Positions 2,224 to 60,176 of a stretch of 64,000 nucleotides of DNA are shown here, piece by piece. The stretch lies in sequence record OQ031495, one strand, 5' to 3'. Source of the DNA: Escherichia phage MRostami-2023e. Below the pieces are notes generated by a model, which saw only the letters and a list, made by a program, of their open reading frames with translations, did no database searches and was not told where the DNA came from. The position numbers and the translations under genes were made by a program. Within the stretch, counting starts at the first letter, position 1. Every line of letters starts with the position of its first letter.

Positions 2224-3160
2224 ATGTACAATATCAAATGCTTGTCCCAAGAAGAACAGTTAGAAGCTTACGACCTGGTCAAATCAGGCAAATGGACTCG
2301 TAAAGAAATTGCCGATTACTTCGACATTTCAACAGATACTCTTCGTAAGATTGTTAAGAATTTTAAAGCTGAAGGAGAAAGCAGCTGAATTTGAAGACGA
2401 AGAACAGGTCCCAGAAAATGATGAACCTATTATTACCGGCCATCGTCCTGAAATCGTATGGAACGCGTCATCTAAATTTATTTCAATTATTGAAGGACGC
2501 GTAGCATACAATGCGACTCCATCAAGTCATGCAAATTTTGAAGAAATTAAAGCTAATCTGGTCGCAGGAAACCTTAGTAAAGCTGTCGAACTTATTAACA
2601 TCAAGAAAGCTATTACTAAGTTTGTTGATGGTAATGTTACTATTGAAGGTGGTAGTTTATTTTATCAAGGTATAGAGATTCGTTCAGGGCTGGTTAACCG
2701 TATTATTGATTCCATGGAAAAAGGTGAAGACTTTAAATTCTATCTGCCATTCCTTGAAAACCTGTTAGAAAACCCAAGCGAAAAAGCTGTACAACGTTTA
2801 TTCGACTTCTTGGTTGCAAACGATATTGAAATCACTGAAGATGGGTATTTCTATGCGTGGAAAGTAGTTCGTAAGGACTATTTAGACTGCTATAGTGGTA
2901 CATTTGATAACTCGCCTGGTAAAGTTGTTTCAATGCCTCGTACTCGAGTTAACGACGATGATACTCAAACCTGTTCTCGCGGTCTCCACGTTTGTGCTAA
3001 ATCTTATATTCGCCACTTTGGTTCAAGCTCAGATAAAGTTGTTAAGGTTAAAGTTCATCCACGTGATGTTGTATCCATCCCAGTTGACTATGGTGATGCT
3101 AAGATGCGTACATGTCGTTATGAAGTAATTTCAGACGTTACTGAATTGTTTGCAGAATAA
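2224..3160 (+). CDS. rIIB: rIIB protein, reading frame interrupted by an apparent 1-nt insertion near 2378-2380
   Basis: ATG 2224 gives MYNIKCLSQEEQ.. (rIIB N-terminus) in frame 1, stop at 2388; frame 2 ORF 2309-3160 carries the conserved rIIB C-terminal part; total 937 nt = 312 codons + 1. Confidence 0.85.
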
Positions 3161-11490: not shown

Positions 11491-14400
11491 TTATGCTAAA
11501 CGAACGATATAGTTAAAAGCAACGTTTTTAACTGTGTTTTCTGTATTACCTGTACTATTTACAGTTATTGTATGTCCATGGGAACCAATTGCAACAGTAT
11601 GAGAATGAGCACCAATACCAACAGTATGAGAATGAGCACCAATACCAACAGTATGAGCATGGTTACCAGTAGCGCTAGTAGTTCCTGACCAACTATGAGT
11701 GTGGGCACCATCTGAAGAAGTTTTGGCCATATTCGACGATGCAGTAGCACCGCTCACGGTTGCAGTGAATTTAGCGTTGCCGTTTGGACCCGCACTATTG
11801 TATCCATCATAGAATATGCTAGTGGGTATGCCGCCTTGTACCTGAGGACCTGAACGCGCGTGTTGGTGCGCACCAGCGGAACTAGTATTACCACTCACTG
11901 TATGGTTATGGTTGCCAGTGGTATTACTGGTCTTAGTACCATAATCAAAGCTTGAAGTCGTTTTGCTACCGTAATCAAAACTAGAAGTGGTCTTAGTACC
12001 CAAATCTGTGTTTGATGCACTTGCACTATGGCTATGTGACTTAACACCGTCTGCTTCTGTACTTAATACAGCACGCCCAGATGGTTTACCCTTAATAGTT
12101 TGCCCACGCATATCAGGAATAGTACCTGTAGGATATGCGATAGCAAGCTTAGGATAAGCTGCGGTATCAAAGGTCTGACCTTCCATTAAAGCAAATCCAG
12201 CAGGAATTGAATCGCTTGGCCATGGAATNNNNNNNNNNNNNNNNNNNNNNNNNNNNNNNNNNNNNNNNNNNNNATTTAATGTGGTATTCAGGTTAGCAAA
12301 GTTTCCTGAACCGCCCGTGATATTACCATCAGTGCCAANNNNNNNNNNNNNNNNNNNNNNNNNNNNNNNNNNNNNNNNNNNNNNNNNNNNNNNNNNNNNN
12401 NNNNNNNNNNNNNNNNNNNNNNNNNNNNNNNNNNNNNNNNNNNNNNNNNNNNNNNNNNNNNNNNNNNNNNNNNNNNNNNNNNNNNNNNNNNNNNNNNNNN
12501 NNNNNNNNNNNNNNNNNNNNNNNNNNNNNNNNNNNNNNNNNNNNNNNNNNNNNNNNNNNNNNNNNNNNNNNNNNNNNNNNNNNNNNNNNNNNNNNNNNNN
12601 NNNNNNNNNNNNNNNNNNNNNNNNNNNNNNNNNNNNNNNNNNNNNNNNNNNNNNNNNNNNNNNNNNNNNNNNNNNTTGTCCTAATTGCATTCTGAAATTA
12701 GGAGCAATACGACTATGACTTGCTAATACAACACGCTTACTGTCATTGTCCACAGTAATCATATTACCGCCAGCGCCATCATCTCCTAACGTAACAGAAT
12801 GGCGCATTTGTACCATACCATTATNNNNNNNNNNNNNNNNNNNNNNNNNNNNNNNNNNNNNNNNNNNNNNNNNNNNNTCTTTAGGAGTCGGGATAATATG
12901 TAATGCTGTTTCTGAACGACGGAAAATAGCACCGTATTCGGCGTTCCAAATTCTCAATGCATTTGCTGTTCCGCCAAATTTAGCTTGTCCATTTACAGAC
13001 AATCCATTATTTGCAACTAAGCTTGATTCGGTTGTAATAGAACCNNNNNNNNNNNNNNNNNNNNNNNNNNNNNNNNNNNNNNNNNNNNNNNNNNNNNNNN
13101 NNNNNNNNNNNNNNNNNNNNNNNNNNNNNNNNNNNNNNNNNNNNNNNNNNNNNNNNNNNNNNNNNNNNNNNNNNNNNNNNNNNNNNNNNNNNNNNNNNNN
13201 NNNNNNNAATGAGTTACCCCATGCCTTAATAATCACATAGTTTTTATTCTGTCCTTCGCGAGTACCACCGTTCCATTGGATAGCTCTTGTTTCATCAACT
13301 TTGCTAGGGGCGCCAAATTTAAGGCCTGCAATATTATTAGAATTATTTAAAAATAATTCATTGTCTAATTTAACAGGTTGGATAGAAGAAATAGTGCCGT
13401 CAGCATAAAACTGTACGTTATTAGAACCAGTTACCAGTTTAAGAATACCTGGGTTAATTTCCATACCTTCCTGTGTATTAATGTTGGTTTGGCCTTTACC
13501 ACGGAAATAATGGGAAAATTTACCGCCAGAATTATATCCAATGTGGGTTTGACCATCACCTGCATTGTTTGTATCAGCCTGGGTTTGAACCGATAAAAGT
13601 GCGGCGTTGGTTCCAGGCATTGTCCAGGTTCCGCCTTGGTCTTCTGAGCGTCCAAATAATGCTTTACGAGTACTACGGAAACTATCAGGAGTAATAGAAG
13701 CAACAGAATTCCAATTACCTACTAAATCATAAACACCCTGCTTAATGTATTTTAAACCAGTGGCAGCATCACCTAAAGCAATATATCTTTCTCCCATTGG
13801 AGTAGGAGAACCATAGTTGTTAGTATTTTCATCAGTGGTAATTGTGCCAATAGCAAGTGAACGACGTAATACCATTGCGCCATCATTACGAAGACCCATT
13901 AATTTAGTAGTAAGTGTATTTCCGGTCCACCAAGAAATTTCATCATTCTTACCAGTTTGAGCTGAAGCGATTTCATGGTAAATAGTTCCGCCTGATTTAG
14001 CGCGAACTTTACGAAGATAGTTTACACCATTTTCTTCGCCTGTTCCAGGATAAACATATTGAACTAATGATTGCGAATCATATTGTCCGAATGCTTTTGT
14101 GTCCAAAACAATGGTTTTCGTATTAACTTGTGGAGCAGAAACTATACCATTGGCAGAGTTAATATTGCCTGATGCAGAAATATTACCTGCGCGGACCTCA
14201 ATACTACCAGAATCTACAATAAAATTACCATTACGGTTAAAGACCCAGTGTTTAGAATTGTCTGGAGCTGTAGAATCAATATAATGAACTCTAAATGAGC
14301 CTTCGCTTACTAGTGTACCTACCGAAAAAGTACCGTCTTTATAACGTTGCTTAATCAAAGGGTGGTATTCTGAAACAGAAGTAGTTGAACTTAAATCTGT

Positions 14401-23876: not shown

Positions 23877-24281
23877 ATGGAAGTCGGAAAAACGTACATC
23901 ATTAACCCTTTATCTAAAAATGACTTTGNNNNNNNNNNNNNNNNNNNNNNNNNNNNNNNNNNNNNNNNNNNNNNNNNNNNNNNNNNNNNNNNNNNNNNNN
24001 NNNNNNNNNNNNNNNNNNNNNNNNNNNNNNNNNNNNNNNNNNNNNNNNNNNNNNNNNNNNNNNNNNNNNNNNNNNNNNNNNNNNNNNNNNNNNNNNNNNN
24101 NNNNNNNNNNNNNNNNNNNNNNNNNNNNNNNNNNNNNNNNTACTTTACCGAGGTAACATTAGAAAAGCCTCAACAGGTTAACGAAGGTATAGATTTGGGT
24201 GTAACAAAAATTCATTGTGTTGTAGATAAAACCAACGTCGATGAAATCATTGAACTTTTACAAAAAACTTTTAAAAAGTAG
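23877..24281 (+). CDS. hypothetical protein, mostly masked by a 212-nt N block
   Basis: ATG with RBS after promoter; ends ..IELLQKTFKK; interior unknown. Confidence 0.35.
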   Translation: MEVGKTYIINPLSKNDFXXXXXXXXXXXXXXXXXXXXXXXXXXXXXXXXXXXXXXXXXXXXXXXXXXXXXXXXXXXXXXXXXXXXXXXYFTEVTLEKPQQVNEGIDLGVTKIHCVVDKTNVDEIIELLQKTFKK

Positions 24282-26527: not shown

Positions 26528-26622
26528 NNNNNNNNNNNNNNNNNNNNNNNNNNNNNNNNNNNNNNNNNNNNNNNNNNNNNNNNNNNNNNNNNNNNNNNNN
26601 NNNNNNNNNNNNNNGAGGACAT

Positions 26623-33494: not shown

Positions 33495-34580
<1,086 letters not shown>

Positions 34581-34581
<1 letters not shown>

Positions 34582-35558: not shown

Positions 35559-35678
35559 TGAGAGCTATCTCATTACTATCGAGAATGGTCATAAATCTGA
35601 GCACTACCAACTTAGCCTGTCTAATCCGGTTAAAGGTATTGTTGAATCAGAATCTGTTTATATCTCCTAAGGATTGTT

Positions 35679-36671
35679 ATGTTACCTGTCGTCGGAAAAC
35701 TTATTTCTCCAAAAGAACTGGCTGAGATTATTCCTTTGTCGGAAGCTTACGCATCACAAGTGGCTTCTCATCGCGAACAAGTTAATTCGATTATGAACGG
35801 TGAAGACCCACGCAAACTTATTGTTGTAGGTCCTTGTTCAATTCATGACCCTATTGCTGCTGTTGAATACGGCAAACGTCTGGCTGAACTTCAAACTCGT
35901 CTTCCTAATGTTCTGTTAGTGATGCGCGTTTATTTTGAAAAGCCTCGAACTACCGTAGGTTGGAAAGGTCTTGTAAATGATCCATATCTTGACGGAAGTT
36001 TTGATATGAACCACGGTCTTATAGTTGCACGAACATTGTGTCGTAAACTTCTACGTATGGGACTTCCATTAGCAACTGAAGTATTAGACCCATTCACGAT
36101 TAAGTATCTTTCTGGTATTTTCTCATGGGTTGCTATTGGCGCCCGTACGACTGAAAGTCAGACACATCGTGAAATTGCTTCAGGTCTACCGATGTGCGTA
36201 GGCTTCAAGAACGCAACCAATGGTTCTATTAAAGTAGCTACAGACGCGATGTATAGTGCCGCCTGGCCTCATCGGTATATGGGTATGGACGTCGATGGTA
36301 CTGTAGGCATTGTTGAAGCTGAAGGTAATCGGAATACGCATATTGTATTGCGTGGCGGGACCAACGGCCCGAACTATCATTCTTCTGATATTCAAGAAGC
36401 TTCTAACAAAGCAAGTGCAGTAGGTCTGAATCATTATGTAATGGTTGACTGTAGCCATGCAAACGCTGATGGGCATTATAGCAATCAAATTGGTATTGGT
36501 AAAAATTTAGCAGCTAATGATTTGGTCAAAGGAATTATGATAGAATCATTCCTACATGAAGGAAATCAAAAAATTTCTGATAATATGTCCTATGGCGTTT
36601 CCGTTACCGATGCGTGCATCAGTTGGGAACAAACTAAAGAGCTGTTAACTTATATTAATAAGGTTCAATAA
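35679..36671 (+). CDS. 3-deoxy-D-arabino-heptulosonate 7-phosphate (DAHP) synthase, class I (AroG/AroF/AroH-like)
   Basis: 330 aa; GPCSIHD, MRVYFEKPRTTVGWKGL, GARTTESQ, GFKN, ILRGG, CSHAN, ESFLHEGNQ, ITDACISWE; Cys/His/Glu/Asp metal ligands present. Confidence 0.85.
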   Translation: MLPVVGKLISPKELAEIIPLSEAYASQVASHREQVNSIMNGEDPRKLIVVGPCSIHDPIAAVEYGKRLAELQTRLPNVLLVMRVYFEKPRTTVGWKGLVNDPYLDGSFDMNHGLIVARTLCRKLLRMGLPLATEVLDPFTIKYLSGIFSWVAIGARTTESQTHREIASGLPMCVGFKNATNGSIKVATDAMYSAAWPHRYMGMDVDGTVGIVEAEGNRNTHIVLRGGTNGPNYHSSDIQEASNKASAVGLNHYVMVDCSHANADGHYSNQIGIGKNLAANDLVKGIMIESFLHEGNQKISDNMSYGVSVTDACISWEQTKELLTYINKVQ

Positions 36672-40603: not shown

Positions 40604-40788
40604 ATTAATCCAGAAATTGTTTGGTACGGAAATGATCGAAGTTACTTATCGTGTAACAGACTNNNNNNNNNNNNNNNNNNNNNNNGAACCATTCGTTTAG
40701 TCAATTAAAATGCCTAAAAATGACGGAAATTTATCTATCGAAGACCGTATACCTGGATACGGCCATTGGGCTGATGTTGAAATTATAA

Positions 40789-57353: not shown

Positions 57354-58484
57354 ATGGCTTTTACAGTTGATATAACTCCTAAAACACCTACTGGAGTTAT
57401 AGATGAGACTAAGCAGTTTACTGCTACACCCAGTGGTGAAACTGGGGGCGGAACTATTACATATGCTTGGTCTGTGGATGATGTTCCACAAGATGGATCT
57501 GAAGCAACTTTTAGTTATGTACTAAAAGGACCTGCCGGTCAAAAGACTATTAAAGTAGTTGCAACAAATACAGTTCCAGAAGCTGAAGCTGAAACAGCAG
57601 AAGCTTCTACAACTATCACAGTTCAAAACAAGACACAGACAACTACCTTGGCAGTAACTCCCAATAGTCCTTCAGCCGGAGTAATTGGAACCCCAGTTCA
57701 ATTTACTGCTGCCTTAGCTTCTCAACCGGTTGGAGCGTCTGCTACGTATCAGTGGTATGTAGATGATTCACAGGTTGGTGGAGAAACTAACTCTACATTT
57801 AGCTATACTCCGACTACAAGTGGAGTAAAAAGAATTAAATGTGTAGCCCAAGTAACCGCGACAGATTATGATGCAAAGGAAGTTACTTCGAATGAAGTAT
57901 CATTAACGGTTAATAAGAAGACAATGAATCCACGGGTTACATTGACTCCTCCTTCTATTAACGTTCAGCAAGATGCTTCGGCTACATTTACCGCTAATGT
58001 CACTGNNNNNNNNNNNNNNNNNNNNNNNNNNNNNNNNNNNNNNNNNNNNNNNNNNNNNNNNNNNNNNTCAACTAATGTATACACCGTTGATACATCATCT
58101 ATTGGAAGTCAAACTATTGAAGTTACTGCAACTGTTACTGCTACTGATTATGATAGCAAAACTATCACAGCAGAAGGTCAAGTTCAGGTAACTGATAAAG
58201 TTGCTCCAGAACCAGAAGGTGAATTACCTTATGTTCATCCTCTTCCACATCGTAGCTCAGCTTACANNNNNNNNGGTTGGTGGGTTATGGATGAAATCCA
58301 AAAAATGACTGAAGAAGGTAAAGATTGGAAAACTGAAGATCCAGATAGTAAGTATTACTTGCATCGTTATACGCTTCAGAAGATGATGAAAGACTATCCA
58401 GAAGTTGATGTTCAAGAATCACGTAATGGATACATCATCCATAAAACTGCTTTGGAAACTGGTATCATCTATACATATCCATAA
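57354..58484 (+). CDS. hoc: Hoc, highly immunogenic outer capsid protein (Ig-like domains)
   Basis: 376 aa; MAFTVDITPKTPTGVIDETKQFTATPSG.. and C-terminus ..LPYVHPLPHRSSAY..; two N blocks keep frame. Confidence 0.93.
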   Translation: MAFTVDITPKTPTGVIDETKQFTATPSGETGGGTITYAWSVDDVPQDGSEATFSYVLKGPAGQKTIKVVATNTVPEAEAETAEASTTITVQNKTQTTTLAVTPNSPSAGVIGTPVQFTAALASQPVGASATYQWYVDDSQVGGETNSTFSYTPTTSGVKRIKCVAQVTATDYDAKEVTSNEVSLTVNKKTMNPRVTLTPPSINVQQDASATFTANVTXXXXXXXXXXXXXXXXXXXXXSTNVYTVDTSSIGSQTIEVTATVTATDYDSKTITAEGQVQVTDKVAPEPEGELPYVHPLPHRSSAYXXXGWWVMDEIQKMTEEGKDWKTEDPDSKYYLHRYTLQKMMKDYPEVDVQESRNGYIIHKTALETGIIYTYP

Positions 58485-59026: not shown

Positions 59027-59145
59027 TATGCTTTACATTTTTTGATGGTATAATGAATCTAGGTTCTATCCATTCAAATTAAACATCTGGTCGGAGACAG
59101 AGTCTCTGCTAATTATTTTGATATTATTATTTATAATGGTGATTT

Positions 59146-60145
59146 ATGTTTAAGAAATACAGCAGTCTTGAAAACCACTACAACTCTAAGTTTATTGAAA
59201 AACTCTACACTAATGGTTTGACTACTGGTGTTTGGGTAGCACGTGAGAAAATCCATGGGACCAACTTCTCGTTAATAATTGAACGTGACAACGTCACATG
59301 CGCCAAGCGCACAGGCCCTATTCTTCCAGCAGAAGATTTTTATGGTTATGAAATTGTACTCAAGAAGTATGATAAGGCTATTAAAAACGTTCAAGAAGTA
59401 ATGGGTAGTTCTCGAGCTGTATCATATCAGGTCTTTGGTGAATTCGCTGGTGGTGGAATCCAGAAAGGTGTTGACTACGGTGAAAAAGATTTTTATGTGT
59501 TCGATATCCTTATCAATACAGAAAGTGGTGATAATACGTATTTGACCGATTACGAAATGCAAGATTTCTGTAATGAATTCGGTTTTAAAATGGCACCAAT
59601 GCTTGGTCGTGGCACATTTGATGCTCTTATCATGATTCCAAACGACCTTGATTCTGTCTTAGCCGCTTATAATGCTACTGCGTCAGAAGACCTTGTCGAA
59701 GCAAATAATTGCGTATTTGATGCTAATGTTATTGGTGATAATACTGCGGAAGGTTATGTTCTGAAGCCTTGTTTCCCCTAAATGGCTGCCAAACGGTACT
59801 CGTGTAGCTATTAAGTGCAAGAACTCTAAATTCAGTGAAAAGAAAAAGTCTGATAAGCCTATTAAAACTCAGGTTCCATTAACCGAAACTGACAAAAACT
59901 TGCTTGATGTTCTAGCTTGTTATGTTACATTAAATCGTATTAATAATGTGATTTCTAAGATTGGGACTGTAACGCCAAAAGATTTTGGCAAAGTGATGGG
60001 ATTGACTGTTCAAGATATTCTGGAAGAAACTTCTCGTGAAGGTATTGTATTAACATCATCTGATAATCCGAATCTTGTTAAGAAAGAATTAGTCAGAATG
60101 GTGCAAGATGTTCTGCGTCCTGCATGGATTGAATTAGTATCATAA
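59146..60145 (+). CDS. rnlB: RNA ligase 2, reading frame interrupted by an apparent 1-nt insertion near 59779-59782
   Basis: [33 protein letters not shown].. N-terminal part ends at TAA 59781; C-terminal part ..[26 protein letters not shown] continues in frame +1; 1000 nt = 333 codons + 1. Confidence 0.85.
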
Positions 60146-60152
60146 CGAAAAA

Positions 60153-60176
60153 GGGACCTTACGGTCCCTTTTTTTT
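60153..60176. terminator. bidirectional terminator: GGGACC-UUAC-GGUCCC with T/A tracts on both sides
   Basis: aaaaagggaccttacggtccctttttttt between convergent rnlB (+) and gp24 (-). Confidence 0.7.

Follow-up and report, generated by a model that had tools for sequence, protein, structure and literature searches.

The rnlB gene of the phage analysed here, which encodes RNA ligase 2 (Rnl2) and is the homologue of T4 gene 24.1, was found to be divided between two reading frames by a single extra C, which lengthens a CCC run to CCCC and closes the original frame after 211 codons. The DNA examined was a stretch of 64 kb, referred to below as the window, and the phage from which it comes is an RB69-like Mosigvirus. 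From the comparison with related genomes, the extra base was judged to be, with a probability of about 0.7, a real, recent and lineage-specific +1 frameshift mutation of rnlB in a Mosigvirus similar to vB_EQ1. The gene and its parts are arranged as follows.

59146 to 60145, plus strand: rnlB (RNA ligase 2; T4 gene 24.1 homologue), 1000 nt including the stop codon, with a +1 frameshift.
59146 to 59781, plus strand: frame-0 ORF of rnlB, 211 codons plus TAA at 59779-59781.
59775 to 59778, plus strand: CCCC run holding the inserted base; CCC in RB69, AV111 and TU01, and TCC in mar007P3.
59777 to 60145, plus strand: +1-frame continuation of rnlB, about 121-122 codons with the stop at 60143-60145.
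59900 to 60145, plus strand: TTG-initiated ORF of 81 aa, the second 'RNA ligase' CDS in vB_EQ1, which begins at residue 252 of the repaired protein.

An initial annotation of the window had proposed that rnlB was split by a one-base insertion, with an N-terminal part closing at TAA 59779-59781 and the C-terminal third following in the +1 frame. These proposals were borne out by the translations: the 211-aa ORF was recovered at 59146-59781, and the C-terminal third was read in the +1 frame, where it runs to ...RPAWIELVS free of further stops or indels; the ORF at 59900-60145 was recovered as well. The gene length had also been counted correctly, at 1000 nt or 333 codons plus 1, compared with 999 nt in the relatives. 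Upon removal of one base, a repaired protein of 332 aa was obtained, collinear with T4 Rnl2 (PDB 2HVQ) in a full-length alignment (E=1e-169).

When the pieces were compared with the TIGR02307 profile (the Rnl2 equivalog, with a curated cut-off of 197 bits), the N-terminal piece matched positions 1-200 (E=4e-66) and the C-terminal piece positions 203-326 (E=9e-42), and the repaired protein covered positions 1-326 of 326 with 379.9 bits, above the cut-off. The same division was seen with Pfam, in which RNA_ligase (PF09414) was detected on the frame-0 piece, whose product covers just positions 3-157 of the 171 of this profile, and T4_Rnl2_C (PF18043; E=1.9e-23) on the +1-frame segment. As both pieces match a single Rnl2 profile, the pattern of a broken gene is far beyond chance. 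The position of rnlB between 24.2 and gene 24 is that of RB69. The profile match, motifs I, IV and V and the C-terminal domain of the Rnl2 family are thus all found, but one continuous ORF is not. Because frame 0 stops at 59779-59781 and the remainder is encoded in the +1 frame, rnlB was filed as a frameshifted allele or pseudogene and not as an intact member of the family.

To compare the junction with related phages had been suggested in the initial annotation, and alignment with RB69, mar007P3, AV111 and TU01 revealed one gap column, corresponding to a single extra C, with each of the four relatives one base shorter at this point. Where the relatives read TGT TTC CCT AAA TGG (C-F-P-K-W; mar007P3 carries the variant TTT CCT), the sequence here is TGT TTC CCC TAA ATG G. 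The extra base had at first been located within the four letters taaa; the alignments place it instead as the fourth C of the run just upstream (CCC to CCCC). Removal of a T would restore the frame too, but every relative aligned has CCT AAA, and T was rejected as the extra base.

The closest record was Escherichia phage vB_EQ1 (PQ516281.1; hospital sewage, Iran), itself an RB69-like Mosigvirus. Over positions 59146-60148 (1003 nt compared) it was 100% identical to the window and carried the same CCCC, whereas most other relatives among the matches listed had 1002 nt; the DNA identity of rnlB to RB69-like phages in general was 97-99%. In the vB_EQ1 record, the split gene is annotated as two separate "RNA ligase" CDSs. 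A 91-nt query spanning the junction matched 177 records, with 100% identity only in vB_EQ1; the other matches listed (176 of 177) were one base shorter and did not have the CCCC allele. Among these matches, the allele is private to the vB_EQ1 lineage. The exact mutant junction was not matched in IMG/VR, JGI metagenomes or GTDB genomes, although such negatives carry little weight, as the wild-type junction was missing from IMG/VR too. No match to the exact 211-aa product was found in the gene index, and no paper on vB_EQ1 was found. Among phages at large, a match at one locus spanning 80% or more of the query was obtained for 1361 of 1364 Rnl2-encoding records, and of 60 records drawn as a spread sample from the 1364, 59 had the protein in a single piece. 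The family as a whole has thus conserved an intact Rnl2, and its loss is unusual.

The window is not the vB_EQ1 record itself. The two differ by an indel in rIIB (an extra G in the window), the length of hoc, a 5-nt indel (a deletion in the window) at 60176, 30 nt past rnlB, the runs of N and other sites, and no deposited record identical to the window was found. The CCCC allele is thus shared by two assemblies of one lineage that are not identical, for which a common laboratory, stock or platform is possible. At 60176, an intergenic position in the terminator tail after rnlB, vB_EQ1 has TTTTTTTTTGTTTATTC and the window has TTTTTTTTATTC; the window agrees here with mar007P3, and so differs from PQ516281.1 only 30 nt from the rnlB allele that both share. 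The hoc gene (57354-58481) has about 376 codons, as in mar007P3, compared with 472 codons (1419 nt) in vB_EQ1, and the SNPs that distinguish the window from vB_EQ1 in this region are concentrated at 57626-58274; the difference in length probably reflects Ig-repeat copy number or repeat collapse. Between cd.2 and cd (about 35574-36667), the window contains a segment of about 1.1 kb absent from mar007P3 and annotated in vB_EQ1 as a phospho-2-dehydro-3-deoxyheptonate aldolase, an accessory gene resembling those of sugar metabolism.

The window also contains 15 runs of N, 1385 N in total (for example 1269-1332, 12339-12675, 23929-24140, 26528-26614 and 58006-58067), so its source is a masked or unfinished sequence. 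Some of these runs differ in length from the corresponding sequence of vB_EQ1 or mar007P3 (36 vs 21, 87 vs 296 and 64 vs 91), and variable regions (the gp37 tip, frd.2, nrdA.1 and hoc) contain many of them. Adjoining one of them (40663-40685), the homologue of gene 30.4 shows an in-frame stop at about 40690-40700 (EPFV*SIK, where mar007P3 has EPYVTSIK), and three SNPs distinguish it here from vB_EQ1; this stop may reflect poor sequence quality at the edge of the masked stretch and not a true nonsense mutation.

The alternative that bears most directly on the reality of the mutation is a sequencing or assembly artefact, in which the phage would truly have CCC and an intact rnlB of 332 codons, the fourth C being a homopolymer miscall in the consensus. 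The change is of one base inside a homopolymer, where indel errors typically occur, the sequence is unfinished, as its 15 N-runs indicate, and the gene is almost universally intact elsewhere, all of which would fit an error. On the other hand, a homopolymer error that reaches the consensus would usually call for a run longer than three to four bases, and two assemblies that are not identical both carry the allele. An error-prone assembly should, in addition, hit many genes, essential ones included. From the close relative mar007P3, 91 annotated CDSs were translated and compared with the window by tblastn, and a change of frame was detected in only two of these 91 reference genes, rnlB (59778/59777) and rIIB (2376/2402); wherever the sequence was not masked by N, every essential replication or structural gene was continuous. 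In the corresponding part of vB_EQ1, 1 of 91 genes was broken, namely rnlB, and in the remainder of that genome, as judged by its annotation only, the essential genes were not split. Therefore, the consensus is not generally ridden with indels.

The second lesion, in rIIB (window 2224-3160), had been likened to that of rnlB in the initial annotation, and the likeness holds in that it is also a one-base insertion. Here, an extra G at 2375 converts GAAGAG into GAAGGAG relative to vB_EQ1, in which rIIB is an intact CDS of 936 nt; frame 0 then stops at TGA 2386-2388, and the remainder continues in the +1 frame from about 2402. This lesion is not found in PQ516281.1 and is private to the source of the window.

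Further breaks of rnlB were found in two other Mosigvirus records. In TU01 an AA run near nt 710 of rnlB has become AAA, and in AV111 an AAAA run near nt 720 has become AAAAA, these being separate one-base additions of A that split the gene 80-90 nt downstream of the CCCC site. A recurrent hot spot at the CCCC site was rejected, as both breaks lie at other positions. The two insertions resemble typical homopolymer errors and to that extent favour an artefact in the same gene; they would represent either errors or the sporadic decay of a dispensable gene. In the laboratory, rnlB is dispensable.

The state of the downstream frame was considered as well. Compared with mar007P3, the +1-frame part of rnlB showed two synonymous and two non-synonymous codon differences and no stops, so the lesion is recent. 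This lack of decay fits an error as well as it fits a very recent mutation. When these observations are taken together, a miscall was considered the main alternative but an unlikely one, and we infer that CCCC is not a sequencing error.

If the extra C is a real mutation, its effect on the protein can be predicted from the position of the break, which falls after residue 211 (T4 P213), between motifs IV and V. In the numbering of the repaired protein, motif I (KIHGTN) corresponds to residues 35-40 and motif IV (EGYVLK) to residues 202-207, both in the frame-0 product, whereas motif V (AIKCKN, residues 221-226) is encoded in the +1 frame and is absent from the 211-aa product. This product keeps the adenylylation lysine of motif I and motifs III-IV, but has neither the motif V lysines (T4 K225 and K227) nor any of the C-terminal domain. 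In T4 Rnl2, K225 and K227 are catalytic residues that contact the AMP phosphate and are key to adenylyl transfer (PMC3149579), and both step 2 and the overall sealing of nicks depend on the C-terminal domain (PMC3884662). As it has no motif V and no C-terminal domain, the 211-aa fragment should be inactive as a ligase. The allele is accordingly predicted to be null or strongly hypomorphic, and null under standard decoding. The role of Rnl2 during infection is still unknown (PMC3884662).

The other components of RNA repair were retained, as rnlA and pseT, the tRNA-repair pair, were intact in the window, and the loss of the whole RNA-repair set was rejected on these grounds. The pseT gene (window 33682-34581) encodes 299 aa from a GTG start; the CDS of 777 nt called in vB_EQ1 from a downstream ATG is an annotation shortfall.

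The signals for the expression of rnlB also appear to be retained, as read from the sequence, and comprise the following.

59029 to 59054, plus strand: putative middle-type promoter, with TGCTTTA at 59029-59035, a 13-nt spacer and TATAAT at 59049-59054.
59138 to 59142, plus strand: GGTGA, the likely ribosome-binding site of rnlB.
60147 to 60174, plus strand: strong intrinsic terminator directly after rnlB, a 12-pair stem followed by a T run.

The TGCTTTA element is MotA-box-like. A sigma-70 scan gave nothing on the plus strand.

The question of whether the allele is fully null depends on how the new junction is decoded, and two further features are relevant.

59773 to 59782, plus strand: junction UUC_CCC_UAA_A (Phe-Pro-stop), a candidate 'shifty stop' by its codon layout.
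59765 to 59781, plus strand: interval open to frameshifting; the +1 frame is open after TGA 59762-59764 and frame 0 closes at 59781.

Since the +1 frame is open only from 59765, any rescue must fall within 59765-59781, and within this interval only CCC_U permits perfect +1 re-pairing (CCC to CCU at 59777-59779). After such a slip, AAA and UGG would be read, which gives exactly the ancestral CFPKW. The junction combines a P-site codon capable of re-pairing with an adjoining stop in the A site, a layout that belongs to the shifty-stop class of sites, also described in PMC5009743. The sequence CC[C/U]-[C/U] is the classic +1 slippery context (PMC4519876), and the conditions listed as provoking frameshift errors include rare codons and stop codons (PMC3617221). 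At the end of E. coli pheL, UUC_CCC_UGA supports a +1 shift of 15% in K-12 and of 1.9% in Salmonella, to which the penultimate Phe contributes (PMC3082878). In the same article, CCC_UAA is given as the site at which phages Q54 and SPP1 shift to the +1 frame. As vB_EQ1 encodes only tRNA-Arg and tRNA-Met, the slipping tRNA-Pro would be that of the host.

Other observations argue against leakiness. The 89 nt downstream of the junction did not fold better than shuffled sequences (z=0.34), and no suitably spaced Shine-Dalgarno-like stimulator was found upstream, the nearest candidate (GGAAGG) ending 22 nt before the CCC. Both release factors recognise the stop codon UAA, at which termination is better than at UGA. 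Transcriptional slippage was rejected as another source of rescue, as it needs a run far longer than four C.

The course of events proposed is as follows. One C would have been added to the CCC run of rnlB, probably by slippage during replication, after which standard decoding would terminate at UAA after 211 residues. A small fraction of the ribosomes may slip +1 on the host tRNA-Pro from CCC to CCU, perhaps between about 1% and a few per cent of them, and such a slip would produce full-length Rnl2 with exactly the ancestral sequence. By analogy with the sites cited above, the allele is plausibly leaky through this junction. The stronger proposal that the extra C is both real and self-compensating, with at least 1% of the ribosomes slipping to yield the exact ancestral Rnl2, so that rnlB would be down-tuned and not dead, is put forward tentatively and is on balance doubtful.

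A selected, programmed +1 frameshift, by which a short N-terminal product and a set fraction of full-length Rnl2 would be made, is a different claim and was considered very improbable. The junction does match the class of sites in use, with CCC_UGA in the tsh gene of Listeria phages and CCC_UAA in SPP1 and Q54 (PMC3082878, PMC5009743), and a slip would yield the exact wild-type protein. However, the ORF is uninterrupted in 176 of the 177 records covering the junction and in the wider family, and as the two-frame arrangement is not conserved, this does not correspond to a programmed frameshift. Moreover, the site has neither an upstream Shine-Dalgarno-like stimulator at about 3 nt nor a downstream structure, the 211-aa product, devoid of motif V, has no evident function, and the whole arrangement is a single mutational step away from the wild type.

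The assembly of the 211-aa N-fragment and the 81-aa C-fragment into an active two-subunit ligase has a negligible likelihood, despite the annotation of both pieces as 'RNA ligase' CDSs in GenBank and the two structurally separate domains of T4 Rnl2 (PMC3884662), because residues 212-251, motif V included, are coded by neither annotated piece, the TTG at 59900 is not preceded by a Shine-Dalgarno sequence, and the ATG at 59782, which overlaps the stop in TAAATG, belongs to frame 0 and opens a peptide of only about 10 codons. Termination-reinitiation at TAAATG was rejected for this last reason, and the 81-aa TTG ORF is most likely an artefact of ORF calling.

Under the preferred reading of a recent frameshift mutation, the allele can be compared with several known systems. 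With T4 Rnl2 (gp24.1; PDB 2HVQ/1S68) and RB69 RnlB, the repaired rnlB shares motifs I, IV and V, the C-terminal domain and the position next to 24.2 and 24, and differs from them in that the gene is broken after residue 211, whereas these relatives have a continuous ORF of 332 codons. The likeness to E. coli pheL (Gurvich et al., PMC3082878) lies in the codons for Phe (UUC), Pro (CCC) and stop in the E, P and A sites and in the perfect re-pairing on CCU. The pheL shift is incidental and not selected, and the same is held for the rnlB junction. The two differ in the stop (UGA in pheL, UAA followed by A in rnlB), in the upstream nascent peptide, and in the shifted product, which has no known use in pheL but in rnlB would be the ancestral protein.

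At the tsh sites of the Listeria phages PSA, A118 and A500 (CCC_UGA) and at those of SPP1 and Q54 (CCC_UAA), the shift occurs on the same codon with a stop occupying the A site, and the CCC_UAA of rnlB is identical to the sites of SPP1 and Q54 as given in PMC3082878. These sites are conserved, with two structural proteins made by design, whereas in rnlB the site is a private allele of an enzyme gene. A further likeness is to the 'savior' or compensated indels with low-level frameshifting, such as those in the G-run of the herpes simplex thymidine kinase gene (PMC5009743), in which standard decoding is lost through a homopolymer indel and a small amount of wild-type product could be regained when ribosomes slip on that run. 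In contrast to these cases, lowered Rnl2 is not known to bring a selective benefit, and compensation in rnlB is a candidate.

The finding is that of an ordinary frameshifted allele of a well-characterised gene and carries little weight for biology at large; GenBank already showed the split, in the form of two neighbouring 'RNA ligase' CDSs. Its value for annotation is that a single frameshifted rnlB pseudogene should replace the two CDSs, the 81-aa TTG CDS most likely not being a gene. A natural rnlB-deficient Mosigvirus in which rnlA and pseT are intact would offer a small handle on the role of Rnl2 in infection, and also on whether a UUC_CCC_UAA junction made by mutation is decoded with appreciable +1 slippage. 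If the allele is indeed leaky, a T4-like phage would provide a natural case in which incidental frameshifting rescues a homopolymer indel.
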